Shown: positions 12,987-50,180 of the stretch, piece by piece
How positions within the stretch are numbered: the stretch's first letter is position 1
Layout: each line of letters starts with the position of its first letter
NCBI GenBank assembly: GCA_963662715.1
Contig: OY759724.1
Location: 1,562,662-1,626,661, forward strand
Length of the DNA stretch: 64,000 nucleotides
Source: Candidatus Omnitrophota bacterium
GTDB lineage: Bacteria; Omnitrophota; Gorgyraeia; Zapsychrales; JANLHA01
Direction: 5' to 3'
Translations under genes and position numbers: made by a program
Notes under the pieces: model-generated
The model's database searches: none
What the model was told of the DNA's origin: nothing
What the model saw: the letters and a program-made list of their open reading frames with translations, nothing else

Positions 12987-12989
12987 AAA

Positions 12990-14283: not shown

Positions 14284-14297
14284 GGGAGACCGATATA

Positions 14298-15426: not shown

Positions 15427-15506
15427 CCGTTGTTTTATTCTATCAGCTTGTTGAAGCTGTTCAATTGTTTAAGTGTCGGGAAAACCTTACTCAAGGAGGC
15501 GTTATT

Positions 15507-22270: not shown

Positions 22271-24154
22271 TTGTCCAGCCTGCTTTTTATGTTTTATAAC
22301 GAGTTTTTTCCCTTTGATATGACCCGATCCCTATCTGTCAGAATCTCCCGCAACCTGTTTTTGGGGGTTCTTGTTCTTCTGTTTTTATATGAAGCCAGTT
22401 ATATTTTCTGGAGAGCAGGACATGCCTATCGTAACTTTAAGGCTGCCGGCTGGAATTATGATGAGCGGCGGCACGATTTTGCCGAAGCCCTGCCGTATCT
22501 GACATTAAAAAGGTTTTTGCCCGAAACTTCTCTTATAGATGTGCCTGCCCGGGGCTGGGATATAGAAAATGTCGCTGCCAAATATTTTCTTTACCCCATA
22601 AGGTTTCAAAAAGGCGGGAATTATATTTTAACTCATAAAGACGATGCCTCTCAGCCTCCTTCAAACTGGCAGAACAGGAGCCTTCCCCGGGGCATGAACG
22701 TGTATGCGAAGCCGGGCTATGGGTTTGCCGATCAAACGCGGCGCAATAGTGTTTCTTTGCCGTTGGGTATGACATTTATTTGGGTGTGTGTTTTTGCGGT
22801 TTTTAATATCCTGATCGGGCTGTCTTTCCTGAAAACATTGGAGTTCCCCTTGAGGGAAGGGGTGCCTTTATGGATTTGGGGATGTAGCTATCTGCTGGGT
22901 TTCCTGCTTTTGAGTGTTTCCCTTTTGGTGCTGGCTGCGGCAGGGAGAGGGTTGATCGATATGAATATCATCCTTATCGTTTGGGTGGCTGTTATATGGA
23001 TGGTATACATTGTCAAGCAAACGGTATGGGCTGATGTCTTTTCCGGGGGTGGGAGGATATCGCTCCCGGACCGGATTCCCTTAGCTTGTTTCAAGGAAAA
23101 CTCTCTGCACGGGTTTTTGATTTTTGTTTTAATCGCCGTCATCATCATTTCCGTTTTTACTCCGGTTGTGGACTGGGACGGGATGGCCCACTGGATCATG
23201 AAATCCAAAATTATGGCCTGTCAGCACCGGCTGGATTTTTCCTATACGCATAATAATTATCACCCTATCCTCTGGCCTGTTTACGTGGCGGTGCAATTTA
23301 TCATAAGCGGCGGAATTCATGATCAGTTCGCAAAATGGACGTCGGCATTCTTGTTTGTCGTCTTTGCCGGGTTCCTCTGGCAGGGTTTCCGGGCCGTCTC
23401 CGGGAAGGGGAAGACGGCGACTTTGTTCACCCTGGTCTTTGTCGTTCTGAGCTTTCGTGTGCCGGTGAAAGATTTTTGGTTTTACAATTACATTCATGCG
23501 AATGCCGAGAATTTATTTTTATCCTTTCTGACAGGAGTAACCCTCGCGGTCATGCTGTGGATCCGGTCGAGAGAAAAATGTTATTTGTCTTTGGCTGTTT
23601 TCTTCGGCGCGGGGTTGTCTTTGACGAAATTAGAAGGCGCAGCCACGGTCCTGCTTTTGGCCGTGCCGTTATGGGTGTTGTTTAAGAAGCTGAAGATGTC
23701 GAAAAAAGAAATACAGCTGTTATCTGCCTTGAGCTTCAGTGTCCTGCTGTTGGTGTTGTGGGTTCTTTGGGTGAACCTGCACGGTTATGGAGAGGCCACC
23801 CTGCATGCAGGCTCCGGGGTGACTTGGGAAAAGGCCGGTATTTTGACGCACAGGCTGACAGATTATATCCTGCATAATCAGTTTATTCTTTTGAATCTTA
23901 TTTTCTTTGGCGCGGCCCTTGTTGTTCCGAGGAACAGGTTGTGGACGGTGAGCGAGAAATATCTGCTTTTCAGTTCCGTATTGTTAATACTGTTTAGCTG
24001 TCTCGCCATGGCCGGTTGGCCGGCAGAAAAACTGAAGTCTACGTCTCTGGAGGTGTTTCAGAGACTCTTTCTTCATGCGGCTCCGGTGGTGGCGTTTTTT
24101 TGTGTCAGCCGGTTTTCGGGTGACTCCAAAGAAAGCGCGGAAGACTGTTGCTGA
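22271..24154 (+). CDS. large polytopic membrane protein, possibly GT-C-type glycosyltransferase
   Basis: 627 aa with about 14 predicted TM helices and loops. No soluble catalytic domain recognised. Confidence 0.45.
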   Translation: MSSLLFMFYNEFFPFDMTRSLSVRISRNLFLGVLVLLFLYEASYIFWRAGHAYRNFKAAGWNYDERRHDFAEALPYLTLKRFLPETSLIDVPARGWDIENVAAKYFLYPIRFQKGGNYILTHKDDASQPPSNWQNRSLPRGMNVYAKPGYGFADQTRRNSVSLPLGMTFIWVCVFAVFNILIGLSFLKTLEFPLREGVPLWIWGCSYLLGFLLLSVSLLVLAAAGRGLIDMNIILIVWVAVIWMVYIVKQTVWADVFSGGGRISLPDRIPLACFKENSLHGFLIFVLIAVIIISVFTPVVDWDGMAHWIMKSKIMACQHRLDFSYTHNNYHPILWPVYVAVQFIISGGIHDQFAKWTSAFLFVVFAGFLWQGFRAVSGKGKTATLFTLVFVVLSFRVPVKDFWFYNYIHANAENLFLSFLTGVTLAVMLWIRSREKCYLSLAVFFGAGLSLTKLEGAATVLLLAVPLWVLFKKLKMSKKEIQLLSALSFSVLLLVLWVLWVNLHGYGEATLHAGSGVTWEKAGILTHRLTDYILHNQFILLNLIFFGAALVVPRNRLWTVSEKYLLFSSVLLILFSCLAMAGWPAEKLKSTSLEVFQRLFLHAAPVVAFFCVSRFSGDSKESAEDCC

Positions 24155-28343: not shown

Positions 28344-30104
28344 TCAGATGTCTTTTGGGGCTTCTGCGGCGGGCGTCTGTCCGGCCGGGATTTGCCCGGA
28401 GGCCCGGTTTAAACACTTGTTCGGAGGTTCATCGATTCTTTTGTAGATCTTGACCGCATGGTTCCATCCCCAGCCTGCCTTTGTGTTCCACGAACCGAAT
28501 AAAGCCTCGGTTTTAAAGTGATCCTGCATGTACTGATAAATGAGAGGACAATATGTCCTGCCAAATACCCCCAGATGCTCTTGCGAGGAAATCGCCCTGT
28601 TGGAAAGAATGATGTACCGGACGCGGTGTTTTTCCAAATCAGCGATAACGTTTCTTTCCTGTTCCGGCGTGATGTTTTTATGATCAAAAAAGATCAGCTG
28701 CCGGCTGGCCCCGTCGCGTCCGGTTAAAAAGTAATAAAGCGGATCAAAAGGCAGAGCAAAAATTTTTTCATCGTCCTCGGTGTGGTCCTGAATGTATCGG
28801 CTGGCCCGGGTTACGGTCTGTGTCCAGTCAACGGGGGAAGTTACGTAAACATTGCTCGCGCCGCAGACTAAGTGATTCAGGGGGTAGCTTTTCAGGAACT
28901 GCACCAGGACTCTTTCTCTGTAGATGTTTGTGAGGGACAAAATAAGAAGGGTGATAAAGATGAGGAATTTTATCCAGGGGTTGGATATCATCCGCGTTCC
29001 GGTCGAGATAATGATAAACATCAGGATCATAAAAGGGGGAATGATCCACAAGAGCCGGTAGTGGACGCCGCTGGCGATAAATTCATGAAGGGAAACGATC
29101 ATCAGAAATATAATGGCCGAAGAAGCCAGTATGATATCGGAGCGTCTGGATGGATCGATTTGCCCTTTACGGAAGGATATGATGGCCTGGATCAGGGACA
29201 GCAACAGAAGCAGCGCAATAATAACCCGTCCGAAATCTTTCGTGCAGTTTATGATAATGGTTCTCCAGAGCATGCTCAAAGAACCTCCAACTCCGGTGGT
29301 TGTGTCTGTCCGGTAGCTTTTGAAAAAGGGAAAGGTCTGGCCCAGAACATAACCGGGGAGCGGGTATAATAAATAGCCGTAAATAAGGGTGACAATAAAG
29401 ATGAGACCGAGAACAAGGCACAGGTAAATTTTGCGGTTTTTACCCCTTTGAGGATTTTTTTTGACCCCGTCTATGATCAGGAGGCTGGTGAAAAAAGCCG
29501 CAAGAGTGGAGACGCCCAGGTTGACGCGTATCAATAAAATCATCAGCACACTCAAAGATCCCAGGAGGACGAACTTCCTTTTGGGCTTACGGATATATTT
29601 CAGAATAAAATACAGGGCTGTGACCAGAAAAAGCAGGGCCCCGGCATGGTTGTACGTATAAAAGAATTCCACGCCGCGGTAAGCCCAATACCAGGTGGCG
29701 CAGACAAAGGCGAGGGAGGGGGAAATAAAGATTGTACAGCACAGGTAAAGCACAAGTCCGATGAGCAGGATAAGGATATTCTGGCCCAGGAGAACGCTCT
29801 GAATGCTGACCCCGAATAACCGGTAAAAAATAATATAATAATAAGGCATGAGCGGCCCGAAGAGCCAGGAGTAATCACGGTAAGGCAGGGCCCCTTCCAT
29901 TGTTTTTTTAAAACAGTATAAATCCCGGCCATGATCTCCGGTTGAGATCATAAACTGGAAGTCGTTGAAAGGCCATAAGGTCAGAATCCCTACAAGGAAA
30001 GAGAGGAGAAAAAATATTTTTTTTGAGCTTGGTTTCCTTTTGGTTAATATATCTCGGATTCGGGCATAGGTTTTCATGAGAGACGGTCCTTGTCTGTTGA
30101 ACAA
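28344..30104 (-). CDS. putative GT-C-fold glycosyltransferase (ArnT/PMT-like), paralog A
   Basis: N-terminal region 'GDHGRDLYCFKKTMEGALPYRDYSWLFGPLMPYYY...LFGVS' mirrors the ArnT/PMT first-loop pattern (DEGRY...EKPPLxYW...LFG). About 11 TM helices plus a roughly 170-aa C-terminal soluble domain. Start is TTG at 30104 (AAGGAG upstream) or ATG at 30077. Confidence 0.5.
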   Translation of the reverse strand: MFNRQGPSLMKTYARIRDILTKRKPSSKKIFFLLSFLVGILTLWPFNDFQFMISTGDHGRDLYCFKKTMEGALPYRDYSWLFGPLMPYYYIIFYRLFGVSIQSVLLGQNILILLIGLVLYLCCTIFISPSLAFVCATWYWAYRGVEFFYTYNHAGALLFLVTALYFILKYIRKPKRKFVLLGSLSVLMILLIRVNLGVSTLAAFFTSLLIIDGVKKNPQRGKNRKIYLCLVLGLIFIVTLIYGYLLYPLPGYVLGQTFPFFKSYRTDTTTGVGGSLSMLWRTIIINCTKDFGRVIIALLLLLSLIQAIISFRKGQIDPSRRSDIILASSAIIFLMIVSLHEFIASGVHYRLLWIIPPFMILMFIIISTGTRMISNPWIKFLIFITLLILSLTNIYRERVLVQFLKSYPLNHLVCGASNVYVTSPVDWTQTVTRASRYIQDHTEDDEKIFALPFDPLYYFLTGRDGASRQLIFFDHKNITPEQERNVIADLEKHRVRYIILSNRAISSQEHLGVFGRTYCPLIYQYMQDHFKTEALFGSWNTKAGWGWNHAVKIYKRIDEPPNKCLNRASGQIPAGQTPAAEAPKDI

Positions 30105-30330
30105 TCACTCCTTGATTGTCCGGAATGTTTTTTTGAATGTCGCATATCATAAAATATGATAAAATGAAATCTTTCTCACGCCCTGCGGCAAGTCTTCAGA
30201 CCTCTTCCGAGCGCTGAATGAGGCCCCGGCAGAATCAAAAGACCGTGAGAATGATAAACTTAACTAACGATATCACACAATCCTTCATTTATGGATAAAA
30301 ATCGTAAAAGAAAACAGTAAGGAGTAGATC

Positions 30331-30651
30331 ATGGTTCAGTTGCAGGATTTTCAGCAGATAGAATTAGTCGTGGCCCGAATTAAAGAGGTGCAGGACCATC
30401 CCAAAGCCGACCGTCTTTATGTCTTGAAGATTGATACCGGACAGCAGGAAAAACAGCTGGTGGCCGGCATCCGGTCTTCCTATTCCAAGCCGTCTTTGAT
30501 CGGCCGCCAGATCATTGTTATCAATAACCTTGAGCCGGCTGTTATCCGGGGTGAAAAGTCTGAAGGCATGCTTTTGGCCGTGGGGGATGAAAAGGGCGTG
30601 GCCTTGATAAGCCCGGACCGGGACATGCCTCCCGGTACACGCGTGCGATAA
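30331..30651 (+). CDS. tRNA-binding (Myf/EMAP-fold) domain protein, CsaA-like
   Basis: 'LVVARIKEVQDHPKADRLYVLKIDTGQ...QLVAGI' matches the MetRS C-terminal domain / CsaA tRNA-binding domain pattern. Confidence 0.7.
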   Translation: MVQLQDFQQIELVVARIKEVQDHPKADRLYVLKIDTGQQEKQLVAGIRSSYSKPSLIGRQIIVINNLEPAVIRGEKSEGMLLAVGDEKGVALISPDRDMPPGTRVR

Positions 30652-30676
30652 CTTCGAAAGTCGGCAGCCCTGCCTT

Positions 30677-32332
30677 TCAAAACTTCCGTTTAATAATGAT
30701 GGTGCCGTGATGTTCGACCCATTGCGCAGGAGTTTTCCAGTCACCGAAAGCGGCAACCTGCTCGAAATTATCAATAAAATATTGTGCCAGGAGCCGGCAA
30801 TGGGTCCTCCCGAAATAGCCGAGGCGGGACTCTCCGGTGTTTACACGGTTGGATAAGACGACGAACCGGACCCTCTGTTCCTGGAGGTCCTGAATGGTTT
30901 CGATTTCCTGTTCCACGGGAATGTGATTGTTGTAAAACAACATCAGCTGCCGTGTCGGGGCTATCCGGTCCGTTAAATAATAAAGAGGATCATACGGAAA
31001 GACAAAAAATGTTTCTTCCGGCTGAAGATGTTTCTGCAGGTAGGCGGCGGTCTGTTCGACAGTATTGATCCATTGCGGGCTGTTCTGAAAATAGATCTGC
31101 GCCCGGGGATGCGACCAAAAGCGCCCGGAGGCTTTGAGCTCTCCTACGTCCTTCCGTATGGATGTCAGGCCGAGGAAAACCGAGAAGAACAGGTACAGAA
31201 ACCATCTGAAATACCGGGAGCTGTATGTCGCCAGCAGGGAAAAGAGAGTGAACATAAATATGATGTGGAAAGGCGAGGCCCAGAAGAGCCGGTATTGAAC
31301 GCCGCTGAAAAGATATTCATGGAGATGCGTTATGGAAAACAGACCAAGGATAAGGATGGCTGTATAAACGTAGGGGGAAACTGTCTTGTTTTTTTTCTTT
31401 TGAAAAGTGTGCAGGACAGTGGATATGGCGGCGATGCTCAGCAGACTGAAAAACAGTTTTGAAAACCATGTTTTTGTGATTTCTTTTATGAGGTGTGTTT
31501 TGTAAACTTTCGCGGCCATAGATGCGGGCAGGCTGAACTGCCGGTCAGACCCCAGGAAGGGGAAGGATTGCCGGATGACATAAAAGGGAAGCCCTTTAAA
31601 GAACAGGTGGTAGAAGAAGGCTACCGCGAGAGGAAGAATGACGCCAGCCAGGAGGTAGAAAAGCTTTTTGTCAGAAAATTTTCTGCGGTGAATCAGGTCC
31701 GTTATCCCGACCGAAAGAGTGAAGCTGAAGAGCGAACATAACCCCATGTTCAGTTTTACAAAGGACAGCAGAAATATACCGAAAAGCCCTTTGTAAAGAG
31801 CAGAGGGTTTATTGTGAAAAAGGTACTGAACAAGAAAAAAGATGATCGCCGTAATTAACGTTATGCCTCCGGTATGATTATAGGTGAAAAAGAAGTAGGG
31901 GTAAAAATTCCAGAACCAGAGCGCCGCCAGCATGCCCCAGAAAGGACGGGCCAGGATGCGTAATGTGCGGTAAATGAAAAGACCGGCGGTGAGTTTCAAC
32001 ATGATTTCCCCGATAAGGATGCTCGGTATGGATAAGCCCAGGATCTTAAGGAAAAAGGCATAATAATATGGCATCAGCGGACCGTAAACCCACCAGTAAT
32101 CCTGATAAGGAACCTGTCCTTTTAACGTCGCTGCGTAACAGTAATAATCCCGGCCGTGATCCCCTTGGGCGATATTATTTTGATAGTTGTACAAAGGCCC
32201 CAGCATAATACATCCCAGTAAAATTAATACGGGAGGCAGGAATTGGGCCGTGGGGATTCTCCGGATACGGCGGAGAAAATTATGAAATTTATTTAAAATG
32301 AGGGATGTTTTCATATGAGTGTTTTCAAACAA
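30677..32332 (-). CDS. putative GT-C-fold glycosyltransferase (ArnT/PMT-like), paralog B
   Basis: Collinear with paralog A: 'GDHGRDYYCYAATLKGQVPYQDYWWVYGPLMPYYY...ILGLS'. C-terminal 'VLSNR...GYFGRTHCRLLAQY' matches A's 'ILSNR...GVFGRTYCPLIYQY'. Confidence 0.5.
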   Translation of the reverse strand: MFENTHMKTSLILNKFHNFLRRIRRIPTAQFLPPVLILLGCIMLGPLYNYQNNIAQGDHGRDYYCYAATLKGQVPYQDYWWVYGPLMPYYYAFFLKILGLSIPSILIGEIMLKLTAGLFIYRTLRILARPFWGMLAALWFWNFYPYFFFTYNHTGGITLITAIIFFLVQYLFHNKPSALYKGLFGIFLLSFVKLNMGLCSLFSFTLSVGITDLIHRRKFSDKKLFYLLAGVILPLAVAFFYHLFFKGLPFYVIRQSFPFLGSDRQFSLPASMAAKVYKTHLIKEITKTWFSKLFFSLLSIAAISTVLHTFQKKKNKTVSPYVYTAILILGLFSITHLHEYLFSGVQYRLFWASPFHIIFMFTLFSLLATYSSRYFRWFLYLFFSVFLGLTSIRKDVGELKASGRFWSHPRAQIYFQNSPQWINTVEQTAAYLQKHLQPEETFFVFPYDPLYYLTDRIAPTRQLMLFYNNHIPVEQEIETIQDLQEQRVRFVVLSNRVNTGESRLGYFGRTHCRLLAQYFIDNFEQVAAFGDWKTPAQWVEHHGTIIIKRKF

Positions 32333-32420
32333 AAGCGTAAGGACAGAATTTCAGTAATGCCGACAGGGCTACAATGTGTTACAATAGCAACGTTTTTAAA
32401 ATAACATAAGCCCGGCTTAA

Positions 32421-32894
32421 ATGGAGAATTTATATAAAAACTTTTTGAGGCCGGATGAGGCCGCGAAAGGAGGGGGCGTGACGGTTCATACAGCCTATAT
32501 TCATTTATCGACCAACGGCCATGCCGATGTTGAAGATGTGACGCAGCAGGTGCAGCAAAAAGTATCGGCTTCAGGCCTGCAGGACGGAATTGTTACGGTG
32601 AGCGTCATCGGATCAACGGCGGCTGTCACAACCTGCGAGTTTGAACCCGGCCTGGTCAGGGATATTAAAGATATCCTGGATGCCCTGATCCCTCGAGGCT
32701 CTTATCATCATGATCAGACCTGGGGCGATGGGAACGGCCATTCTCATTTAAGGGCTTCGCTGATCGGCCCGTCTTTGACCATCCCTTTTGCGGCAGGAAA
32801 GCTTATTTTAGGGACATGGCAGCAGATTATTCTTGTTGATTGCGACAACAGGAGCAGAAAACGGCAGATTGTCGTGCAGATTTTGGGGGAATAA
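32421..32894 (+). CDS. YjbQ/UPF0047-family protein (secondary thiamine-phosphate synthase-like), paralog 1
   Basis: 'GIVTVSVIGSTAAVT...HSHLRASLIGPSLTIPF..G.L.LGTWQQIILVD' is a YjbQ family signature. Confidence 0.65.
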   Translation: MENLYKNFLRPDEAAKGGGVTVHTAYIHLSTNGHADVEDVTQQVQQKVSASGLQDGIVTVSVIGSTAAVTTCEFEPGLVRDIKDILDALIPRGSYHHDQTWGDGNGHSHLRASLIGPSLTIPFAAGKLILGTWQQIILVDCDNRSRKRQIVVQILGE

Positions 32895-32897
32895 GGC

Positions 32898-33440
32898 GTG
32901 GAATTCAAACAATTCGTCCCTTCTTTGGTTTGTTTGTCCTGTGACGGCTGCTGCCGTTTTCATGACCCTGCGAGCGGCTGGCGGCCCAAACTGGGAGCCG
33001 GGGAGCAGAACTCGGCAGGGCCTTTGGCAGGCTGTCTGGATCTGGCCGCTGACAGCCGAGGGCTTGATGAAGAGGGCTTTATCCGTACGGAAGCAGACCA
33101 GGGCCAGCATCGTTGCCGTTTTCTTCAATTCAAGGACAATACCTGCCAGGTTTATTGTTTTCGGCCGTTTGAGTGTCAGCTTTATCCTTTTCTCCTGATA
33201 AAGGAAGGAAAAGATTTCTTGGTCGGCCTGCATTTGAGTTGCCCGTTTGTTCAGAAATTTTTTGGAAAAGAGGAACTGGAAGCGTATAAGCTGTACCTGA
33301 ATGATTTTTTGCGGCATCCGGAAATGATTCATTTTCTGCGGGATAATATTTCTTTGTTTGGCGATTATCAGGCATGGGCCCGGGAATGGGTCCCTGTCTT
33401 TTCCCTGACGGAATTGCTGTCATCAACATGTGATGGATAG
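32898..33440 (+). CDS. YkgJ-family Cys-cluster protein (putative Zn/Fe-chelating domain, UPF0153)
   Basis: 'VCLSCDGCCRFHDP...CRFLQFKDNTCQVYCFRPFECQLYPF' follows the CxxCxxCC...C...C..YPF pattern of the family. Confidence 0.65.
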   Translation: MEFKQFVPSLVCLSCDGCCRFHDPASGWRPKLGAGEQNSAGPLAGCLDLAADSRGLDEEGFIRTEADQGQHRCRFLQFKDNTCQVYCFRPFECQLYPFLLIKEGKDFLVGLHLSCPFVQKFFGKEELEAYKLYLNDFLRHPEMIHFLRDNISLFGDYQAWAREWVPVFSLTELLSSTCDG

Positions 33441-34326
33441 AGAACTTGAGCATTATAAGGATTTGGTTGATAAATATTTGCGTTTAAACCGCTATGCGCT
33501 TTGCGCGTATTCATTTGTTTCCGTTTTTCTCTGGAAAGATTTTTTTCAGTTTCATTTCGAGATTATTGACGGCCAGCTTTGTATCTTCGCTGAGAATGAT
33601 TCGGGGATTTTTCTTTATCTGCCTCCTTTAGGAAGGGAATTCAACCCGGAAACAGTGCGGGATTGTTTCGCTTTGATGGGGCGGAGGAATTCCGGGCAGG
33701 GGGTGACGAGGATAGAAAATGTTGACTGGCGTCAGATATCGTTTTTCTCCGGGGACAGCCTTTGTTATTTAAAGGGGTACGAATTTCTTTATTACAAAAA
33801 AGATATCATTCAGTTGAAAGGAAAATCGTATAAATCGAAACGTTCGGATTATAATCATTTTATCAAAACACATAAATACCTCTTTGCCCCTTTTTGTGAG
33901 ACCATGAAGGATGAATGTTTGAACCTTTACGACCAGTGGCAGGAGGACCGGGCCAGGAAGCACCCGGATGACATTTACCGTCATATGCTCTCGGAGAACC
34001 GTCAGGTTCATGCCCTGGGCATGCAGAACGCACGGTTATTGGATCTGGTCGGACGGGTCGTTATCGTGGACGGAGAGATTAAAGCGTATACGTTCGGGTA
34101 TTGGGTTCAGGATGCTGTTTTCTGTGTTCTTTTTGAAGTCGCGGACTGTACGTGTAAGGGGTTGCCGGTGTTTGTTTTTCATGAACTCTGTGCCGATGAG
34201 GAATTAGGGAGAGCCCGTTTTATCAATACGATGGACGATTTCGCCATGCCGCAGCTTGAGAGAACGAAGGAGTCCTTCCGGCCGATTATGAAGCTTCCGT
34301 CTTACACCGTTTCTCCGGCGTCGTAG
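33430..34326 (+). CDS. DUF2156-domain protein (homolog of the MprF/aaPGS aminoacyl-tRNA-dependent transferase domain)
   Basis: 'CAYSFVSVFLWKD', 'LKGKSYKSKRSDYNHF' and 'EIKAYTFGY' match the conserved blocks I recall for standalone DUF2156 / LPG-synthase C-terminal domains. Confidence 0.5.
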   Translation: MMDRELEHYKDLVDKYLRLNRYALCAYSFVSVFLWKDFFQFHFEIIDGQLCIFAENDSGIFLYLPPLGREFNPETVRDCFALMGRRNSGQGVTRIENVDWRQISFFSGDSLCYLKGYEFLYYKKDIIQLKGKSYKSKRSDYNHFIKTHKYLFAPFCETMKDECLNLYDQWQEDRARKHPDDIYRHMLSENRQVHALGMQNARLLDLVGRVVIVDGEIKAYTFGYWVQDAVFCVLFEVADCTCKGLPVFVFHELCADEELGRARFINTMDDFAMPQLERTKESFRPIMKLPSYTVSPAS

Positions 34327-34374
34327 GGACCTGTGCATATGGAATAAAAAAACAGCAATGTCGGGACAGGAATT

Positions 34375-35208
34375 ATGGAGCATATTCAGGACACTTGTTT
34401 TGTCATTCTCGATGTCGAGACGACAGGGCTGTCCACCCGTAACGGGGATAAAATCATTGAAGTGGCCGGACTGAAACTGCAGGGACTGAATATCGTCGAC
34501 CGTTTCGAAAGCCTGATTAATCCTCTACGGCCTCTTTCCTATGAAGCTTTCTTAGTCAACTGGATCACCCCTGAGATGGTGGAAGGGGCTCCGGCGGCCG
34601 CAGAAATTTTACCGCAGTTTTATGCTTTTTTGCAGGACAGTTGTCTGGTGGGGCACAATATCAAATTTGATTTGTCTTTCCTGTCGTATGAGTTTTCTTC
34701 GCTGGGGTTGGACCTGGATAAAAAGATCCCTGCGCTGGATACGTGTAAAATGGCCCGCGGTCTTATGCCGGAATTAGGACGGTATGCCTTAAAAGCCGTT
34801 GCGTATGCTTTGGGTGTTGTTGAGCCCCAACGGCACCGTGCCATGGCGGACGTTGAAATGACATACGAGGTTTTTCGTTCCCTGATGGATATGGCCGAAC
34901 GTCGGGACATTTATGCCCTTCCCATTTTGTTGCGCCTTTTTGGCCGGCCCGGCAGTTGTCCCGCAACAGAGCGACAGGGATTTGTGGAAATGATCCGGGA
35001 AGCGATGAACACATCCCGGTCTTTAGAACTGATTTATTCCGGCCGCTGCGGCAGAGATATCACATTCCGAACGGTCACTCCTAAACAGATCGTCGGGAAC
35101 GGGCCCCGGGCTTTTCTGGTCGGTCATTGCCATCTGCGGCAGGAGGAACGGATGTTCCGGTTGGACCGGATCGTGTGGCTGGCCAAGAATCGGGAGGCAG
35201 ATTCATGA
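34375..35208 (+). CDS. DnaQ-like DEDDh 3'-5' exonuclease fused to a C-terminal WYL-like domain
   Basis: Exo I 'FVILDVETTGL', Exo II 'GHNIKFDLSFL', Exo III 'HRAMADVEMT'. C-terminus 'RTVTPKQIVGNGPRAFLVGHCHLRQEERMFRLDRI' fits the WYL-domain core (R.V.P...WYL.A.C....R.FRLDRI). Confidence 0.65.
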   Translation: MEHIQDTCFVILDVETTGLSTRNGDKIIEVAGLKLQGLNIVDRFESLINPLRPLSYEAFLVNWITPEMVEGAPAAAEILPQFYAFLQDSCLVGHNIKFDLSFLSYEFSSLGLDLDKKIPALDTCKMARGLMPELGRYALKAVAYALGVVEPQRHRAMADVEMTYEVFRSLMDMAERRDIYALPILLRLFGRPGSCPATERQGFVEMIREAMNTSRSLELIYSGRCGRDITFRTVTPKQIVGNGPRAFLVGHCHLRQEERMFRLDRIVWLAKNREADS

Positions 35209-35259
35209 AGGAAAGCCGCCGCAACGCATGTCAGGGTATGTTGAGGGCAGGGAGTCAAT

Positions 35260-36657
35260 ATGGAGTATAAAAGTTTTGTTTGCAAAAACAATGCGTGGCA
35301 GGTCTTTAGGGCTTTTTCAAAACAGCCGCATGCTTTTCTTCTGGAAAGCAGTTTGCGGGAACCGCATTTAGGCCGGTATTCCATGATGGGGTGCCAGCCG
35401 TTTGAATTCTTTTCATCCTCAAGCAGGAATGCCTTACAGGACTTGAAAGACCGTTATAACATCTATGCCCGGGATTCTCGTCAGCCCGGAACATTACCCT
35501 TCACTGCCGGGATAACAGGATATATCAGTTATGACTACGGCCGGACATTGGAAAAGATCTCTTCTCAGTGGCCGGGGACCGGCATCCCGGACGTCTGTTT
35601 CGGTTTTTATGATTGCGTGGTCCTCTTGGATCATTTAGCCGGCAGACTTTATGTGGTATCCAGCGGTTTTCCGGAGAGAGTGCCGTCTCTGAGGGCCAAA
35701 CGGGCCCGGGAGCGTTTAAAAGCCATGACCGCGTTATTGCGGCAAACAGAAATTTCCCCGGGCCGGGAAAGACAGCCGCCGGGACAGTTTTTCCCCTCTC
35801 CCTCCGGGGTGAAACTGGAGAGGGAAATGACGTCGTGCCAGTACCAGAAAAGCGTCAAGCGGGCTCTGGATTATATCCGTAAAGGCGATATTTATCAGGT
35901 GAACCTGTCGCAGCGGTTTTTTGTTAACGGGAAAATGCGCCGTGCCTTGCCGGAAGCCCTGCCGTTATACGAAAAGCTGCGTGTTTTGTCCCCTTCCTGT
36001 TTTAGTGCCTATTTTGACGGGGGGGCTTTTCAGATTGTCAGCAGTTCTCCGGAGCGTTTCCTGCGGTTAAGGAAGCGGCAGGTTGTCACCCGCCCGATGA
36101 AGGGGACACGCGCCCGGGGAAGAACGCGTCAGCAGGACAGGCAGAACCGGCGGAAACTTCTGGACAGCAAAAAAGAGAAGGCGGAGCTGCTGATGATCAC
36201 CGATCTTGAGCGGAATGACCTGGGGCGGGTGTGTGAATATGGCTCTGTGCGGGTTGATGCCTTAAGAACTCTGGAATCCTATGCGACGGTTTTTCAGGCG
36301 ACTTCGACGATCAGCGGACGGCTTAAAGATTCCCTGGACGGGTTTGACCTTTTACAGGCATGTTTACCGGGGGGCTCCATTACCGGTTGCCCCAAAATAC
36401 GGGCCATGCAGATTATTGATGAACTTGAAGTTTCCCGCCGGTCCATTTACACCGGGGTTTTAGGCTACATGGATTTTAACGGGGATTTGGATTTTAATAT
36501 TCTCATCCGGACGCTTTTAGTCCGGCCCCGGACGATCTCCTTTCATGTCGGGGCCGGAATTGTTTCAGACTCGAAACCGGAAGCGGAATATGAGGAAACG
36601 ATCATTAAAGCACAAGCGATGTCCCAGTGTTTGCAGACGAAAGGATGGCGCCGGTGA
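35260..36657 (+). CDS. pabB: aminodeoxychorismate synthase component I (chorismate-binding enzyme)
   Basis: Chorismate-binding C-terminal signature 'GAGIVSDSKPEAEYEETIIKA' and 'PGGSITGCPKIRAMQII'. Assigned as PabB rather than TrpE because a class-IV aminotransferase (PabC-like) gene follows immediately. Confidence 0.7.
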   Translation: MEYKSFVCKNNAWQVFRAFSKQPHAFLLESSLREPHLGRYSMMGCQPFEFFSSSSRNALQDLKDRYNIYARDSRQPGTLPFTAGITGYISYDYGRTLEKISSQWPGTGIPDVCFGFYDCVVLLDHLAGRLYVVSSGFPERVPSLRAKRARERLKAMTALLRQTEISPGRERQPPGQFFPSPSGVKLEREMTSCQYQKSVKRALDYIRKGDIYQVNLSQRFFVNGKMRRALPEALPLYEKLRVLSPSCFSAYFDGGAFQIVSSSPERFLRLRKRQVVTRPMKGTRARGRTRQQDRQNRRKLLDSKKEKAELLMITDLERNDLGRVCEYGSVRVDALRTLESYATVFQATSTISGRLKDSLDGFDLLQACLPGGSITGCPKIRAMQIIDELEVSRRSIYTGVLGYMDFNGDLDFNILIRTLLVRPRTISFHVGAGIVSDSKPEAEYEETIIKAQAMSQCLQTKGWRR

Positions 36658-36671
36658 ACCGGAGAAAGACT

Positions 36672-37487
36672 ATGTATATGGTCCTGGATGATGTTGTCCT
36701 GAACGTTGATGAGGATGCCCTTCGGGAATTCACTCCGGGCTTAATGAAGGCCAGGGGCGTTTTTGAAACGCTCCGCGTCACGCAGGGGAAGGCCCTTTTC
36801 TGGAAGGAGCATATTCTCCGTCTTAAAAAAAGTTTGCGCGCTTTGCAAATGCCTTTCCCGGCTGTGGAGAACATCCTGTCCCGGAGGACGGCCCAGCTGA
36901 TCGATTTGAATCATATCGATGAAGGGCGGCTGCGGTTGTCCGTGTGGACAAAACACCGCAAGATTCATTGGGCCGTTTGTACCGCTCCATGGAAAGGGAT
37001 GTCCCCTCGGAAATGCCTCCGGGGTTTAAAAATGATTATTGCTCCTCAAAGGATCGATGAATCCGATCCGGGCGTGTCGCTTAAAATGATGGCTTACCGC
37101 CCTTATTATCAGTCTTTTCTGTATGCGCAAACCAACGGTTATGACGAGGCGCTTCTTCTTAACAGCAAAAAGGAAATCGTCGAGGGAAGCCGGACAAATA
37201 TTTTTTGGGTTTCGGACGGGCTCCTTTTCACTCCGGCTTTGAAGACAGGGTGTCTTCCGGGGATCGTCCGGTCGCAGGTTTTGAAAATTGCCCGGCGGAA
37301 ACACATTCCCTGCCGGACGGTTTGTGCTCAGCGTGAAATATTTTCTAAAGCGGAAGAAGCGTTTTTAACCAATTCATTGTTGGGGATTGTCCCTTTGGCG
37401 GAAGTCGGAGGGGTGAGAATCGGCCGGAACAAGAAAAAGGGAATCACGGGAATCCTGGAAAACGCTTACCGGAAACTTGGGGGTTGA
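36672..37487 (+). CDS. pabC: aminodeoxychorismate lyase / class IV aminotransferase
   Basis: Start at MYMVLDD, with GGAGAAAG upstream. 'GVFETLRV', 'TNIFWV' and 'TGCLPGIVRSQVL' are fold-type IV PLP enzyme motifs. Follows pabB. Confidence 0.6.
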   Translation: MYMVLDDVVLNVDEDALREFTPGLMKARGVFETLRVTQGKALFWKEHILRLKKSLRALQMPFPAVENILSRRTAQLIDLNHIDEGRLRLSVWTKHRKIHWAVCTAPWKGMSPRKCLRGLKMIIAPQRIDESDPGVSLKMMAYRPYYQSFLYAQTNGYDEALLLNSKKEIVEGSRTNIFWVSDGLLFTPALKTGCLPGIVRSQVLKIARRKHIPCRTVCAQREIFSKAEEAFLTNSLLGIVPLAEVGGVRIGRNKKKGITGILENAYRKLGG

Positions 37488-38707: not shown

Positions 38708-38869
38708 AGGCCCGATAATCTTTCCTGATTCACTCCCTTCCCGGATTAAGGTGTTCGTCGTCAAAACTGCCTGCGGGGCTTTCCGCAATAAATCATTAGA
38801 ACAATTATTAATATTGATATATAATTTTAACCATATTCTTTGTTAGAAATATTACAGAAGGGATTTTTT

Positions 38870-39355
38870 ATGGACGAGATATTGGAAATATTATCAAATG
38901 ATGCCAGGGTTACGCCGGAAGAAATCGCTAAAATGACAGGGCAGGACCTCGCAGCCGTAAAGAAAAAAATCAAGAAATACGAGAAAGACGGGACCATCGT
39001 CAGGTATAAGGCGATCATTAACCAGGAGCTGGCCTGCGATGCCAATACTTTTGTCCGGGCTTTGATAGAAGTGAGCATCGATCCTCAAAGGGACGTCGGC
39101 TTTGATAACGTTGCGGAACGTATTTACAATTTTTCGGAAGTGAGCAGCTGTTATCTGGTTTCCGGGACATATGATCTTTTGGTTATCGTTGAAGGGAAGA
39201 ATTTGCAGGCGGTTTCAAATTTTATCGCTTCAAAACTGGCTCCTTTGGCGCATGTCAGAAGCACCACAACGCATTTTCTGTTAAAGAAATACAAAGAGGA
39301 CGGGCATATATTTAAGAAAGCCAAAGCACAAAAGAGGTTGAATATTTCCTATTGA
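38870..39355 (+). CDS. Lrp/AsnC-family transcriptional regulator
   Basis: N-terminal HTH ('LSNDARVTPEEIAKMTG') plus a C-terminal RAM/ACT-like domain ('YLVSGTYDLLVIVEG'). Confidence 0.8.
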   Translation: MDEILEILSNDARVTPEEIAKMTGQDLAAVKKKIKKYEKDGTIVRYKAIINQELACDANTFVRALIEVSIDPQRDVGFDNVAERIYNFSEVSSCYLVSGTYDLLVIVEGKNLQAVSNFIASKLAPLAHVRSTTTHFLLKKYKEDGHIFKKAKAQKRLNISY

Positions 39356-39395
39356 TAATTTTATTGTTTATCTTCGAAACAGCAGAGAGAAAAAA

Positions 39396-40556
39396 ATGAA
39401 TGCAAGAATTTCTAAGACAGTCGAACATTTGGCCCCTTCCGGGATCAGAGCCTTTTTTGACCTGGTCCTGAATATGAAGGATGTTATCTCCTTAGGGGTC
39501 GGTGAACCGGATTTTGTTACGCCCTGGCGTATCAGGGAGAAAGCTATCTCTTCCCTGGAAGAAGGGTTTACGTCATACACGTCCAACAAGGGGATGATCG
39601 GGCTCCGGCGGGAAATTGCCCGGTTTTTATCAGCCCGTTACGGAATTCATTATGACCCGGAGGACGAGATTCTCATTACAGTCGGCGTGTCAGAAGGCGT
39701 TGACCTGGCTGTCCGTGCCATTTTGAACCCCGGTGAGAAAGTTCTGGTTCCGGAACCCGCTTATGTCTCCTACGGCCCTGTTGTTGAACTGGCGGGGGGG
39801 AAGCCGGTGTATCTGAAAACCAGTCTTGAGCACGGCTTTAAATTGTCGGCACAGCTTATTGAGCAGGCTTGTGCGAACGGCCGGGTGAAAGCCCTGCTGA
39901 TCAATTATCCGGCCAACCCGACCGGAGCTTCTTATACCCGCCGGGAATTATCGGCCATCGCTGCTGTTGTTAAAAAACATGATCTGCTTGTGATCAGCGA
40001 TGAAGTTTATGATGAGCTGACGTATGATTTTGATCATACGCCCCTGTCCTCTTTGCCGGGGATGAAGGGGCGGGTCATCTACTTGAACGGCTTTTCCAAG
40101 GCTTACGCTATGACGGGGTTCCGTCTGGGCTGGGCAAGCGGCCCCGCGGATTTGGTCGGGGCGATGACGAAAATCCATCAATACACGATGTTATGCGCTT
40201 CTATCACAGCGCAGATGGCGGGAGGAGAGGCCCTAAAACACGGCATGCGATCCGTTCAGGAGATGAAACGGGAGTATGACCGTCGCCGGCGTTTTATCGT
40301 TGATGCTTTGAACGATATCGGCTTAAGCTGTCACTTGCCTCAGGGGGCATTTTATGTTTTTCCTTCCATAGAAAAAACCCGGCAGTCTTCCTTGGATTTT
40401 GCCCAGGGGCTTTTGAAAAAGAAAAAAGTTGCGCTTGTCCCGGGGACGGCTTTCGGTCCTTCGTGCGACAATTTTGTGCGTATTTCCTATGCTTCGAGTT
40501 ATGACAATCTTAAAGAAGCTGTACGCCGGATAAACGAATACGTTCAGACACTGTAA
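39396..40556 (+). CDS. PLP-dependent class I/II aminotransferase (aspartate/aromatic type)
   Basis: 'NGFSKAYAMTGFRLGW' is the class I aminotransferase Lys motif. Typical 'INYPANPTG' block. Confidence 0.8.
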   Translation: MNARISKTVEHLAPSGIRAFFDLVLNMKDVISLGVGEPDFVTPWRIREKAISSLEEGFTSYTSNKGMIGLRREIARFLSARYGIHYDPEDEILITVGVSEGVDLAVRAILNPGEKVLVPEPAYVSYGPVVELAGGKPVYLKTSLEHGFKLSAQLIEQACANGRVKALLINYPANPTGASYTRRELSAIAAVVKKHDLLVISDEVYDELTYDFDHTPLSSLPGMKGRVIYLNGFSKAYAMTGFRLGWASGPADLVGAMTKIHQYTMLCASITAQMAGGEALKHGMRSVQEMKREYDRRRRFIVDALNDIGLSCHLPQGAFYVFPSIEKTRQSSLDFAQGLLKKKKVALVPGTAFGPSCDNFVRISYASSYDNLKEAVRRINEYVQTL

Positions 40557-40561
40557 ATTTT

Positions 40562-40972
40562 TTGTGGGAGATAGCTGTTATGGCGCAAAGTCAGAACGAT
40601 GATTTGGATTTTCAGATCGCTTTTTATGAAGGGATCCTGGAAAAAAGTCAGGATTTCCTGCAGGCCCTTATGGCGCTGGGAGACCTTTATACGAAAAAAG
40701 GATTGTACGAAAAAGGCTTGAACGTCGACCAGAAATTAGCCGAGATCCGGCCCAAGGACCCGTTAGTGCTTTATAACCTCGCTTGCAGTTACTCATTGCT
40801 GGGACAGGTGGATTTGGCTTATCAAGCCATGAAGCGCGCGCTGGCCTGCGGTTATAATGATTTTGAATATTTGCTTCAGGATAAAGACCTTGCCAATCTT
40901 CTCGCTGATAAGCGTTTTCAGCAGGTGCTTGCCCGGGCCAGAGGGCAGTCCATGTCTCACGATAAAAAATAA
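40562..40972 (+). CDS. TPR-repeat protein
   Basis: About three TPR-like repeats ('ALMALGDLYTKKGLYEKG', 'LYNLACSYSLLGQVDLA'). Confidence 0.5.
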   Translation: MWEIAVMAQSQNDDLDFQIAFYEGILEKSQDFLQALMALGDLYTKKGLYEKGLNVDQKLAEIRPKDPLVLYNLACSYSLLGQVDLAYQAMKRALACGYNDFEYLLQDKDLANLLADKRFQQVLARARGQSMSHDKK

Positions 40973-40973
40973 T

Positions 40974-42098
40974 ATGACACATTCGGAAGATCAGGGACAA
41001 CGATACCATCAGGTTAAGAATCAGCTGTTGTATTTGACCATAGGGATGGATGTCGTGCTGTTGGTCCTTTGGGTGACGACAGGTCTTTCTGTCTGGCTGG
41101 CTCAAATGGCGCAGAGATTCTTTCCCTCGGTATGGATGATAAATGCTGTTTATCTGGCAGGGTTTCAGCTGGCTTTTTCCGCTGTCCATTTCCCTTTTGA
41201 TTTTTTTCTTGATTATTACTGGGAGCATCGATTCGGTTTGTCCCGTCAGTCATTATCGCAGTGGCTGAAAGATGTGGCGAAGAAATTTTTGTTGAGTTTC
41301 GTGTTCATCCTGGTCTTTGTTGAAGCCGTTTATTTCTTCCTGAGGCATTTTGCCCCTGTCTGGTGGGTGCTGGCCGCGGGGTTTTGGCTCTTGGCCTCTT
41401 TATTCCTGGCGCGTATACTGCCGCAGGTCATCATCCCTTTGTTTTATAAATATATTGAAATCGAAAACCCGTCACTTAAGGAACGGCTGATGTCTCTTTT
41501 CCGGAAGTGTGCGGTTCCCCTGCAGGATATTTACGCGATCAATATGTCGGAGAAAACCAAGAAAGCCAATGCTTTTATCTGCGGGATCGGCCGTAGCCGG
41601 CGGGTTGTCCTGAGCGATACATTGATAAATAATTTTTCTGAAGAACAGATCGAAACAGTCGTGGCCCATGAATTAGGACACCATAAGAAGAAACATCTTC
41701 TTAAACTCATCGCCGTTAATGCCCTCCTTACCTTTGTGGCCTTCTTTGTCGTTCATCATGTCCTTTCCTGGGGGCTGGGCCGCTGGGGGAATATTCCCCT
41801 TGCTGATATTGCCGGGTTCCCTCTTCTGGTTTTGACGCTTCTTTTGTTCGGTTTTGTGACGACGCCTTTGAGTAACGCCATAAGCCGCGCTTTTGAAATA
41901 GAGGCTGATCGTTTCAGCATGCAGCTAACTCAGGAAAAAGAGCATTTTATCTCCATGCTGCAGAAAATCGGCGAGTTAAACCTTGCCGAGGTCGCCCCCC
42001 ACTGGTTTAACGAAATGATGTTTCATGACCATCCTCCTTTGGAGAAAAGAATCAAACTTGCACAAGGGTATGATTATTCCCATGACAGGAACAGATAG
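40974..42098 (+). CDS. M48-family (Ste24/HtpX-like) zinc metalloprotease, membrane
   Basis: Start at MTHSEDQ, 1 nt after the TPR gene stop. Four or more TM helices. 'VVAHELGHHKKKH' is the HExxH site. Downstream 'EIEADRFS' matches the third zinc-ligand region. Confidence 0.75.
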   Translation: MTHSEDQGQRYHQVKNQLLYLTIGMDVVLLVLWVTTGLSVWLAQMAQRFFPSVWMINAVYLAGFQLAFSAVHFPFDFFLDYYWEHRFGLSRQSLSQWLKDVAKKFLLSFVFILVFVEAVYFFLRHFAPVWWVLAAGFWLLASLFLARILPQVIIPLFYKYIEIENPSLKERLMSLFRKCAVPLQDIYAINMSEKTKKANAFICGIGRSRRVVLSDTLINNFSEEQIETVVAHELGHHKKKHLLKLIAVNALLTFVAFFVVHHVLSWGLGRWGNIPLADIAGFPLLVLTLLLFGFVTTPLSNAISRAFEIEADRFSMQLTQEKEHFISMLQKIGELNLAEVAPHWFNEMMFHDHPPLEKRIKLAQGYDYSHDRNR

Positions 42099-44919: not shown

Positions 44920-45017
44920 TTTAGAAGAAAACCCGAATCTGTCACGGGAAAACAGGCCTCAGAAGGTCCGTCCCGTGCGAAAGACCAGTTCATTTAAAAT
45001 TTTTAGGGAGGCGTGTT

Positions 45018-45437
45018 ATGAAAAGTTATCGAGAAGAACTCTGGTTTAATACCAGTTCCCGCAGGAATTACCTCAATATTACGGATAAGGTGCAGGAGGC
45101 TATCCAGAAGAGCGGGATAAAAGAAGGACTGTGCCTCGTCAACGCTATGCATATCACGGCCAGTGTCTATATCAATGACGATGAGTCGGGCTTGATCCAG
45201 GATTATGATGACTGGCTGGAGAAGCTGGCGCCCCATGCCCCGGTGTCTCATTACCGGCACAACCGGACCGGGGAAGACAACGGGGATGCGCATCTTAAGC
45301 GTCAGATTATGGGGCGGGAGGTGGTTGTGGCCGTTACTCAGGGGCGTCTGGATTTTGGCCCGTGGGAACAGATTTTCTACGGGGAGTTCGACGGCCGCCG
45401 CAAAAAACGTGTTTTAGTGAAGATCATCGGAGAGTAA
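45018..45437 (+). CDS. YjbQ/UPF0047-family protein, paralog 2 (canonical)
   Basis: GGGAGG ribosome-binding site. '[20 protein letters not shown]...[30 protein letters not shown]' is the YjbQ family signature. Confidence 0.8.
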
Positions 45438-45686
45438 TCTGTTTTTAAGGGATCTGCCTTTCTCTGAATTTGTGTTTTATGCCGTCTTGCCGGCGTTATA
45501 GCGTGAGTTTTTCTGGGCGGTGGGGCCGGGCCGCGTGGCTCCGAAAGAATTCAGGAACGTCTGCCGCTGAATGAAAATTTGCTAAATCTTATTTCTTCTA
45601 GAGATAATATACGTTAGAATACTTTTTGAAAAGTCAGGCGTTTTTGCATATCTTTTTTTAATATCCTGAAGATTAACGGGGGACAT

Positions 45687-46820: not shown

Positions 46821-47168
46821 AAAATTTTTGTTTATTTGTTTTTTTGGGAATCTGAGTTCTTCTGTCGGTTTTGTATGCTTAACCTGCTTAGTTGCAAATA
46901 TTTTCCTTCCTGTTATAATATTCCATCTTTAAATTTTGTATCAATATTCAGAGCCGGGACAGAAGCCGATAAAAAAGTTGGCCTCACACGGACGGGAAAT
47001 AAAATCTTTTGTTCTCTGCCGGGCGCTTGGTTATGAAAAACGCTCATGATGAGGTCGTGCACTCTGTCGGAAAGCCGCGCACGCCGGGGGCCGAAAAAAT
47101 AAAGCAGCCTCTCCGGCCGCCGCTCGGCAGCGTAAAGGCTTGGAGCTCGATTACCCTAAGGAGCAGGT

Positions 47169-48077: not shown

Positions 48078-48097
48078 GGAAACGGACAGGTTAGAAG

Positions 48098-48367
48098 ATG
48101 GTGTTGGATTGGATCGACAGAATAGGGTTGCTGGCCTCGATTATTCTTCCTTTATGGAATATCCCCCTTATCGTGAAGATCATCCGCCGGAAGTCCTCCC
48201 GGGACATCAGCTTGGCCTGGGCTTTAGGGGTCTGGTTCTGTATCATCTTAATGGCGCCGTCCGGATTTCGGTCGGCGGACATTGTCTGGCGGACCTTTAA
48301 TATCATTAACTTAATTTTTTTTAGCGGAGTCGTTTTTGTAACATTGAAATTCAGAAATGGAACATGA
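48098..48367 (+). CDS. small hypothetical membrane protein
   Basis: 89 aa with three hydrophobic segments. Fills the gap between the PfkB gene and era. Confidence 0.3.
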   Translation: MVLDWIDRIGLLASIILPLWNIPLIVKIIRRKSSRDISLAWALGVWFCIILMAPSGFRSADIVWRTFNIINLIFFSGVVFVTLKFRNGT

Positions 48368-49328: not shown

Positions 49329-49490
49329 AACAGACGTGCTGTCCCGGGGTCTGATTTCTCTTCTTCTTTTTCGGAGACGGGCTTGTTTCTAGACGGATAA
49401 TTGCTGATTTTTCTTTTAATTTATCTGTCTTTAGCTTATACTATTTTTAATCTGCAAAAATTTTCAGGCGGCATATTTTATTTTCGGAAC

Positions 49491-50177: not shown

Positions 50178-50180
50178 GTC

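Follow-up and report, generated by a model that had tools for sequence, protein, structure and literature searches.

Within a 64,000-nucleotide stretch of the genome of a Candidatus Omnitrophota bacterium (assembly GCA_963662715.1, contig OY759724.1, positions 1,562,662 to 1,626,661; hereafter the window), positions 28344-37487 form a phylum-conserved locus of two units: genes for predicted GT-C glycosyltransferases, and an operon led by the gene of a tRNA-binding protein. In the operon, the tRNA-binding protein is followed by a translationally coupled pair, encoding a YkgJ-type cysteine-cluster protein and a DUF2156 transferase, and then usually by a DnaQ-like exonuclease and pabB-pabC. The pair forms one enzyme. 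We tentatively propose, with a probability of about one in three, that this enzyme moves an aminoacyl group from tRNA, held by the tRNA-binding protein, onto a precursor of the envelope that is linked to the GT-C route. The locus is real, phylum-specific and uncharacterised; it is a testable lead, concerning a variant of known enzyme kinds and not a new category of system.

The YkgJ-DUF2156 enzyme and the conservation of its locus

Families were assigned by Pfam and NCBIfam model scans of the window proteins, scores being compared with the model cut-offs. An initial annotation of this DNA, made from the letters alone, had described seven open reading frames (ORFs), designated here A to G in their order along the sequence. 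All seven are present, and their assignment to GT-C, tRNA_bind, DUF2156, YkgJ, YjbQ and exonuclease-WYL proteins holds, on the Pfam scans and on a model of A used in a fold search.

The product of gene E (32898-33440, plus strand) carries the CxxCxxCC motif of the YkgJ family (PF03692), with a marginal Pfam score of 24 bits for a cut-off of 23, and four further conserved cysteines; the eight residues (C12, C15, C18, C19, C73, C83, C93 and C115) are kept in 77-78 of 78 orthologs. E thus has the motif and the four additional cysteines of the YkgJ/UPF0153 family, which also holds the flagellin lysine methylase FliB, and departs from its typical members in being fused or coupled to DUF2156. Gene F (33430-34326, plus strand) encodes a free-standing dual-GNAT transferase of 298 residues, of the BT_3689 (2HQY) subfamily, which matches DUF2156 (LPG_synthase_C, PF09924) over the full model length (E 1.6e-18) and has the tandem GNAT fold. 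Both proteins are soluble, with no transmembrane (TM) segment.

A pattern scan that kept one genome per species yielded 80 loci, labelled Omnitrophota or given a generic uncultured name (e.g. Planctomycetales), in which the F orthologs are 37-66% identical to the F of the window. The window proteins were searched in these loci by tblastn, and only loci with enough flank were counted. In 75 of 78 loci, the gene immediately upstream of F is YkgJ-like. The two genes, which overlap by 11 nucleotides in the window, mostly overlap by 4-11 nucleotides or stand less than 50 nucleotides apart over the 80 genomes, and they are a single ORF in 6 of the 80. In addition, an exhaustive DUF2156 profile search returned 5,452 representative clusters (50% identity) at E<=0.001. 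Among the best 150 of these 5,452 representatives, 55 are at least 400 residues long with DUF2156 at the C-terminus, and 47 of the 55 have a CxxCxxCC motif within their first ~30 residues, so that YkgJ::DUF2156 fusions make up at least 47 of the 150. The longer members of the F family carry a YkgJ domain, not a TM domain. Fusion of the two parts in roughly one family cluster in three identifies YkgJ and DUF2156 as one enzyme. This widespread fusion is the strongest signal of the locus, and the initial annotation had missed it; the domain architecture was not mentioned in the literature that our searches covered. In an AlphaFold2 (AF2) model of a natural fusion (predicted template modelling score, pTM, 0.63), the DUF2156 half has a predicted local distance difference test (pLDDT) score of ~95, and the YkgJ half is poor (pLDDT <50 across much of residues 1-90).

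The neighbours of the pair are also conserved. A tRNA_bind gene lies upstream of F in 67 of 75 loci, and a GT-C gene of the family of A and C is found within 10 kb upstream of F in 29 of 39 (74%), with two copies in 11. Downstream of F, pabB is present in 53 of 63 genomes and pabC in 47 of 57 (>80%), and AsnC and aminotransferase genes occur near F in 33 of 48 loci. Co-location is thus far beyond chance. The initial annotation had envisaged a chance adjacency, should these genes never be found together elsewhere; they are co-located across the phylum, in 80 species-level genomes. An accidental grouping in this one genome, for which the mixed nature of the predicted functions speaks and nothing more, is refuted by the same gene order in these genomes and by the widespread fusions.

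In the window, the plus-strand genes follow each other closely, as had been noted, with overlaps or gaps of at most 50 nucleotides from D to G (3 nucleotides between D and E, the E-F overlap, 48 nucleotides between F and G). The conserved array runs beyond 35208, at operon spacing, into pabB-pabC (35260-37487), with 51 nucleotides between G and pabB and a 31-nucleotide overlap of pabB and pabC. GC skew is positive throughout the window and the plus strand holds nearly all genes, so that A and C are among the few minus-strand genes. The tRNA-binding gene had been described as divergently transcribed from the genes on its two sides; this is true of A, whereas B and C are convergent. The intergenic region between A and B (30105-30330, no strand), aligned with its counterparts in the three closest relatives (loci L005-L007), contains a conserved A/T-rich stretch that resembles a promoter, and also a GGAG ribosome-binding site. 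Promoter and terminator consensus scans gave no signal above shuffled background. Neither tRNA genes nor Rfam families were detected in the window, so that the operon is not preceded by a T-box or riboswitch.

The tRNA-binding protein and the GT-C paralogs

Protein B (30331-30651, plus strand, 106 residues; tRNA_bind E 7e-29) is a free-standing tRNA_bind OB-fold protein (PF01588) of ~110 residues, as are Trbp111 and the C-terminal domain of methionyl-tRNA synthetase (MetRS). It falls just short of the metG_C_term model TIGR00399 (115.5 bits for a cut-off of 116.65). Among the proteins of the PDB, its best matches are MetRS C-terminal domains (3.5e-28), then YgjH and Trbp111 (to 7e-18), while CsaA structures follow at E 1e-10 to 1e-6. 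The CsaA-like label first given to B has to be abandoned: the CsaA model TIGR02222 gives 63 bits for a cut-off of 119.65, and the MetRS C-domain structures match far better. B is therefore predicted to be a tRNA-binding domain protein of the MetRS C-terminal/Trbp111/YgjH type. Its length is 106-108 residues in 54 of 70 genomes, and the gap between B and E is at most 200 nucleotides in 40 of 68, mostly with YjbQ alone in between in the others. Like Trbp111 of Aquifex, E. coli YgjH and the MetRS C-terminal domain or beta subunit, B consists of one tRNA_bind OB-fold of ~106-111 residues; unlike them, it heads a dual-GNAT transferase operon and is divergent from a GT-C gene, a context in which the literature searches found no description of a Trbp111-type gene. 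B can be read in two ways, as a partner dedicated to holding tRNA for E-F, or as a housekeeping accessory of MetRS whose gene simply stands first in the operon.

The two diverged polytopic paralogs of the initial annotation are indeed paralogs, with 34% identity over 534 residues (E 3e-95). A (28344-30104, minus strand) has 586 residues, or 577 in the public gene call, which starts 9 codons further downstream; C (30677-32332, minus strand) has 551. Both had been expected to match PMT_2 (GT39/GT83). A does so (29.8 bits for a Pfam cut-off of 26.1), whereas C has no Pfam match; neither protein matches an NCBIfam model, and most of their homologs have no precomputed Pfam domain. Sequence evidence for GT-C alone being thin, A was modelled; a fold search was required since the family profile matched no PDB sequence, even at E<=10. 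The model, built on an alignment of 45 family members, has a mean pLDDT of 91.5 and a pTM of 0.90, and Foldseek agrees on GT-C (E 4e-8 to 5e-6). It has the multi-TM bundle and the juxtamembrane helices in the first outside loop that define this fold, with ~10-12 TM helices and a C-terminal alpha/beta domain on the outer side of the cell. This domain, the last 150 residues, is strongly conserved in the family of A and bears a weak likeness to the globular domain of AglB-S2 (E 0.04).

The first extracytoplasmic loop also has the conserved acidic residues expected of a GT-C enzyme: D48, which belongs to the motif GDHGRD and directly follows TM1, and a second aspartate of this loop, D68, are invariant in the 45 family members, and paralog C carries the motif and both residues. 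A and C are accordingly predicted, from the model, to be GT-C fold glycosyltransferases of ArnT/PMT/STT3-like build. They differ from ArnT, PMT and PglB/STT3 (GT-C_A), to which they are only 9-13% identical, and in their distribution, which is confined to Omnitrophota among the 120 best matches; the homologs that have an organism name are Omnitrophota, one coming from an unclassified vent metagenome. The WWD motif (WWDXG) of the oligosaccharyltransferases (STT3/PglB/AglB) is missing from both, and they are therefore not STT3-type enzymes. A third polytopic protein of the window (22271-24154, plus strand, 627 residues) was considered as a relative of A and C and rejected, the hhalign probability being only 7%; it has no Pfam or NCBIfam match, and its homologs are found in locus L005, the closest relative (45%), and, weakly, in L061 (23%).

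The GT-C genes occupy a regular position. Nearly all of them lie on the minus strand and diverge directly from the operon, and the gap between GT-C and tRNA_bind genes is 78-344 nucleotides in 32 of the 40 loci of standard arrangement that have both. In the reciprocal direction, three GT-C homologs were taken from long contigs, and all (3/3) adjoin tRNA_bind-CxxCxxCC-DUF2156. In the window and in L005-L007, which have orthologs of both A and C, tRNA_bind stands between the two paralogs, C being inserted ahead of the rest of the operon; tandem GT-C pairs upstream of tRNA_bind are seen in L001 and others. As a control, the upstream genes of the window (a response regulator and NUDIX genes) were followed. 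As a block they survive only in L005-L007; two further loci gave weak matches to the response regulator, and the genes upstream of GT-C vary by lineage (pyrD/pyrF, V-ATPase genes or response regulators). The GT-C gene therefore marks the edge of the conserved block and is not a random piece of backbone.

In loci that lack the A/C family, the same position is taken by PMT_2/PMT (L061), YfhO (L011, L012, L070), GT2 (~10 loci), sugar epimerase or short-chain dehydrogenase/reductase (SDR) genes, B12-radical-SAM genes, or genes for proteins of 670-880 residues with 9-12 TM segments. Some loci bring such genes into the operon itself. In L078, GT2 and SDR genes are embedded between tRNA_bind and YkgJ. 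L087 has, on one strand, a GT-C gene, tRNA_bind, a YkgJ::DUF2156 fusion and a second PMT_2-like gene; in L089 the order, all on one strand, is GT2, epimerase, radical SAM, a 503-residue protein, tRNA_bind, YkgJ::DUF2156 and exonuclease. B12-binding radical SAM genes adjoin GT-C/tRNA_bind in L072 (4296-5810), L087 (5384-6931) and L089 (4667-6139), and in some cases these recurrent genes point the same way as GT2 and sugar epimerase genes.

A candidate tRNA-dependent reaction and its rivals

In the reading that we favour, YkgJ-DUF2156 would be a cytoplasmic acyl transferase acting on a tRNA-borne substrate. B would clamp the body of the tRNA in trans, mirroring what a fused aminoacyl-tRNA synthetase or an N-terminal helix does in LysX and ErdS; the clamp of ErdS on the tRNA elbow (PMC13219428) offers an analogy. 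The conserved basic helix of DUF2156 would guide the acceptor stem, and the aminoacyl group would go to a membrane-associated acceptor, lipid or polyprenyl-linked sugar. The neighbouring GT-C enzymes, which would act on the outer face with polyprenyl-phosphate sugars, would share with this acceptor one route of envelope modification. None of YjbQ, the WYL domain and pabBC would be required.

This proposal draws on the position of F, whose structure falls in the fold group of the aminoacyl-tRNA transferases. Between the two GNAT halves, F has a basic helix (residues 128-150, with 7 K/R and 1 D/E) in which G131, K135, R138 and N142 are invariant over 29 sequences. Such a helix is characteristic of the aminoacyl-tRNA-dependent transferases (aaPGS/MprF, ErdS/ErgS, Fem) and has been described as their common element for binding the tRNA acceptor stem (PMC6103681; PMC13219428, the 2026 ErdS structure). 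A free-standing DUF2156 enzyme that uses aminoacyl-tRNA is known in fungi, ErgS (PMC8913301). That YkgJ-DUF2156 would take aminoacyl-tRNA as its donor is suggested, indirectly, by the conserved tRNA_bind neighbour. Finally, the tight and reciprocal divergent pair of GT-C and tRNA_bind genes, together with the recurring glycosylation genes in or near the operon, speaks for a common pathway with the GT-C enzymes.

F is not MprF proper: it has 298 residues, is essentially soluble, and lacks the N-terminal polytopic flippase domain. More generally, it differs from the dGNAT-alpha(+) transferases that pass amino acids from tRNA to lipids (MprF/aaPGS, LysX, ErdS/ErgS) in having neither a flippase domain nor a fused aminoacyl-tRNA synthetase, in having a cysteine-cluster partner that none of them has, and in its sequence, to which the solved MprF and ErdS chains show no match.

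Several observations weigh against aminoacyl transfer to the envelope. When the F family profile was compared with solved structures, the single sequence match was BT_3689 of Bacteroides thetaiotaomicron (2HQY, E 7e-39), which F also resembles in structure; no MprF, FemX or ErdS was detected in the PDB, even at E<=10. Acetyl-CoA has been reported in the active site of 2HQY, the nearest characterised relative of F, and lysine acetylation of RNase J drops when the DUF2156 gene of H. pylori is deleted (PMC10700544). The Bacteroides ortholog of BT_3689 has LrgAB and an Eis-like GNAT as its context, and tRNA_bind, YkgJ and GT-C genes are not nearby. In the AF2 model of the fusion, the interface between the two domains is not predicted with confidence. 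GT-C enzymes act outside the membrane, whereas E-F is soluble, and B could be a plain housekeeping subunit of the MetRS beta type. Gene order is kept over more than 20 kb through the unrelated AsnC and aminotransferase, M48, M1-Omp85, PfkB, Era and Nth genes. The variable glycosylation content resembles a polysaccharide-type island at a fixed site, and among the ORFs of at least 150 residues scanned against Pfam in the 64-kb window, there is no flippase or GT2. GT2 genes, possible polyprenyl-phosphate sugar synthases, are present in the array of ~10 other genomes.

Since BT_3689, the closest relative, is reported to hold acetyl-CoA, dependence on aminoacyl-tRNA is not to be assumed; and since BT_3689 has the basic helix too, this helix cannot decide the donor. 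The initial annotation had taken DUF2156 to mean an aminoacyl-tRNA-dependent enzyme, which for the BT_3689 subfamily is a lead and not a fact. A possible alternative, itself doubtful and nearly as likely as aminoacyl transfer, is that YkgJ-DUF2156 is an acetyl-CoA (acyl-CoA) N-acetyltransferase like BT_3689 and HPB8_1270 of H. pylori, which are, like F, free-standing bacterial DUF2156 proteins. Its target would be a protein or an RNA- or tRNA-linked amine, B would be an RNA-binding adaptor or unrelated, and the GT-C enzymes would stand outside the pathway. Beside the reports on 2HQY and H. pylori, this alternative gains from the Bacteroides ortholog, which is followed by another GNAT near pta-ackA, and from the adjacent RNase_T-family exonuclease and tRNA-binding protein, which suit an RNA-related target.

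The H. pylori evidence is, however, a partial effect in vivo and not an enzyme assay, and the basic helix of the aminoacyl-tRNA-transferase type is invariant in F, though it is also found in BT_3689. F and BT_3689 are only ~25% identical, and the motifs of the first GNAT half in Omnitrophota (GxFLYLPPLG, RIEN) are missing from BT_3689, so that the acceptor is expected to differ from that of BT_3689. BT_3689 also has no YkgJ partner, no tRNA-binding neighbour and no GT-C neighbour, unlike F, and an acetyltransferase would leave the recurrent glycosylation genes inside the operon unexplained. In Bacteroides, locus L085 (6809-9948) has the order LrgA-LrgB-DUF2156-Acetyltransf_9, adjoining pta-ackA; a 478-residue database entry (P0326) reads through DUF2156 into the next GNAT. 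The 120 homologs listed for the 2HQY sequence are all from Bacteroides, with 89-96% identity, and they gave a single gene context, unrelated to that of F.

A second alternative, also possible and nearly as likely as aminoacyl transfer to the envelope, restricts the coupling to YkgJ and DUF2156. The rest would be backbone synteny: B a housekeeping protein of the MetRS-beta/Trbp111 type, the exonuclease a DnaQ-type enzyme of replication or repair, pabBC genes of folate synthesis, and the GT-C, GT2, YfhO and epimerase genes a variable envelope-glycosylation island at a fixed site. Backbone synteny does account for some of the conservation, since the block holds pabB-pabC, AsnC and aminotransferase, M48, PfkB, Era and Nth genes, and a YjbQ paralog lies within the more than 20 kb of unrelated genes that keep the same order in distant genomes. 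Because the conserved block spans unrelated genes, GT-C adjacency may be positional. The score of B near the cut-off of the MetRS-beta equivalog model (115.5 vs 116.65), the agreement of G with the DnaQ-family model, the content between GT-C and operon, which varies as in polysaccharide loci, and the opposite strand of the GT-C gene all fit this picture.

Yet in most genomes the close spacing of B, E and F is that of a single transcription unit, and the A/C family is not variable, being present in 74% of loci, directly beside B in 32 of 40 standard loci and reciprocal in 3 of 3 cases. In L087 and L089, B-E-F shares its direction with GT-C-like or GT2 genes, which in L078 are embedded in it, and GT-C stands at the edge of the block, the genes upstream of it not being conserved. 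Because the block goes on into unrelated housekeeping genes, a connection of the GT-C genes with the transferase operon is best called suggestive. The initial annotation had combined aminoacylation and glycosylation in one module; the co-location on which this was built is real, but the conserved block extends over unrelated genes. Such strong backbone synteny is unusual, and it limits neighbourhood-based inference in Omnitrophota. The region 38840-50843 of the window shares its order with L001, L089 and L090, so that distant Omnitrophota have a common backbone that includes pyrD/pyrF and the cluster, and then the AsnC, class I/II aminotransferase, M48, M1-Omp85, PfkB, Era and Nth genes.

A more specific form of aminoacyl transfer to the envelope is clearly less probable, and we regard it as unlikely. 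Here a hitherto undescribed three-part tRNA-dependent transferase (a Trbp111-like protein holding the tRNA in trans, an Fe-S or Zn YkgJ domain and a catalytic dual-GNAT DUF2156 domain) would aminoacylate a lipid or polyprenyl sugar, and an ArnT-like GT-C enzyme would then install the product on the envelope. If this were true, an entire uncultured phylum would share a surface-modification route that joins aminoacylation to glycosylation.

Bacteria have many free-standing DUF2156 proteins (the 5,452 clusters at E<=0.001), which are essentially uncharacterised, and the published hints conflict, some pointing to aminoacyl-tRNA and others to acetyl-CoA. The locus adds two handles on the donor: an obligatory cysteine-cluster partner domain, which about one family member in three carries as a fusion, and a dedicated tRNA-binding neighbour. 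Should the link with tRNA be true, tRNA-dependent non-ribosomal chemistry would be extended to a new enzyme architecture, and the Omnitrophota, mostly uncultured and possibly host-dependent nanobacteria, would share an envelope modification. The Pfam name 'phosphatidylglycerol lysyltransferase C-terminal' misleads the annotation of thousands of proteins if acetyl transfer proves to be the reaction of the enzyme.

Accessory genes and other features of the window

Gene D (32421-32894, plus strand) encodes a YjbQ/UPF0047 protein (UPF0047 E 2e-35; TIGR00149 96 bits for a cut-off of 67.75). Gene G (34375-35208, plus strand) encodes a DEDDh 3'-5' exonuclease of the DnaQ family (RNase_T E 4e-34; TIGR00573 104 bits for a cut-off of 71.5) with a C-terminal WYL domain (E 1e-12). 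YjbQ and the WYL domain were considered as core parts and rejected: a YjbQ gene of the D type adjoins the pair in only 16 of 70 genomes (23%), and although an exonuclease follows F in 47 of 73, it has a WYL part in only 12 of the 47, being in most genomes a protein of ~206 residues that lacks this domain. Both are thus accessory, and WYL is clade-specific. The WYL-sensed nucleic-acid-processing component once proposed for the cluster therefore falls outside the conserved unit. With PADLOC, G gave only generic DEDDh and WYL domain matches and the other six proteins gave nothing; the cluster is therefore not a recognised defence system.

A second YjbQ paralog (~30% identity) lies ~6-9 kb downstream of F in L010, L013, L017, L020, L026, L033, L035 and others. 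It is found in many genomes that have no YjbQ gene in the operon, and in L089 it comes after aminotransferase and TPR genes. In L090, a GAF and HD-domain protein (5581-6900), possibly a cyclic-nucleotide or signalling phosphohydrolase, is encoded between tRNA_bind and YjbQ-YkgJ-DUF2156.

The two genes that close the array are both on the plus strand. The first (35260-36657) encodes a PabB-like chorismate-binding enzyme, similar to aminodeoxychorismate synthase component I (Chorismate_bind E 9e-89; TIGR00553 320 bits for a cut-off of 328). The second (36627-37487) encodes a PabC-like protein of the class IV aminotransferase fold (Aminotran_4 E 2e-47), for which the best NCBIfam model is aminodeoxychorismate lyase, below cut-off.

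Elsewhere in the window, all on the plus strand, a full-length serpin (PF00079 E 4e-125) is encoded at 3234-4451. An ARPP-1 domain protein (15423-16559, E 1e-69) and a protein with a retroviral-type aspartyl protease domain (13678-14283) are encoded amid several ORFs that match no family (11990-14876). About 18 kb from the cluster, at 52537-54839, an ATP-grasp gene of the D-Ala-D-Ala ligase type precedes a radical SAM gene similar to lysine-2,3-aminomutase (LAM_C), an arrangement reminiscent of beta-lysine or EF-P-type modification genes. Finally, a protein of 964 residues (42025-44919) joins a Peptidase_M1 domain (360-523) to a C-terminal Omp85 beta-barrel (759-964); such a fusion of barrel and aminopeptidase is unusual, and the same architecture is also annotated in the distant Omnitrophota locus L001 (18820-20900).

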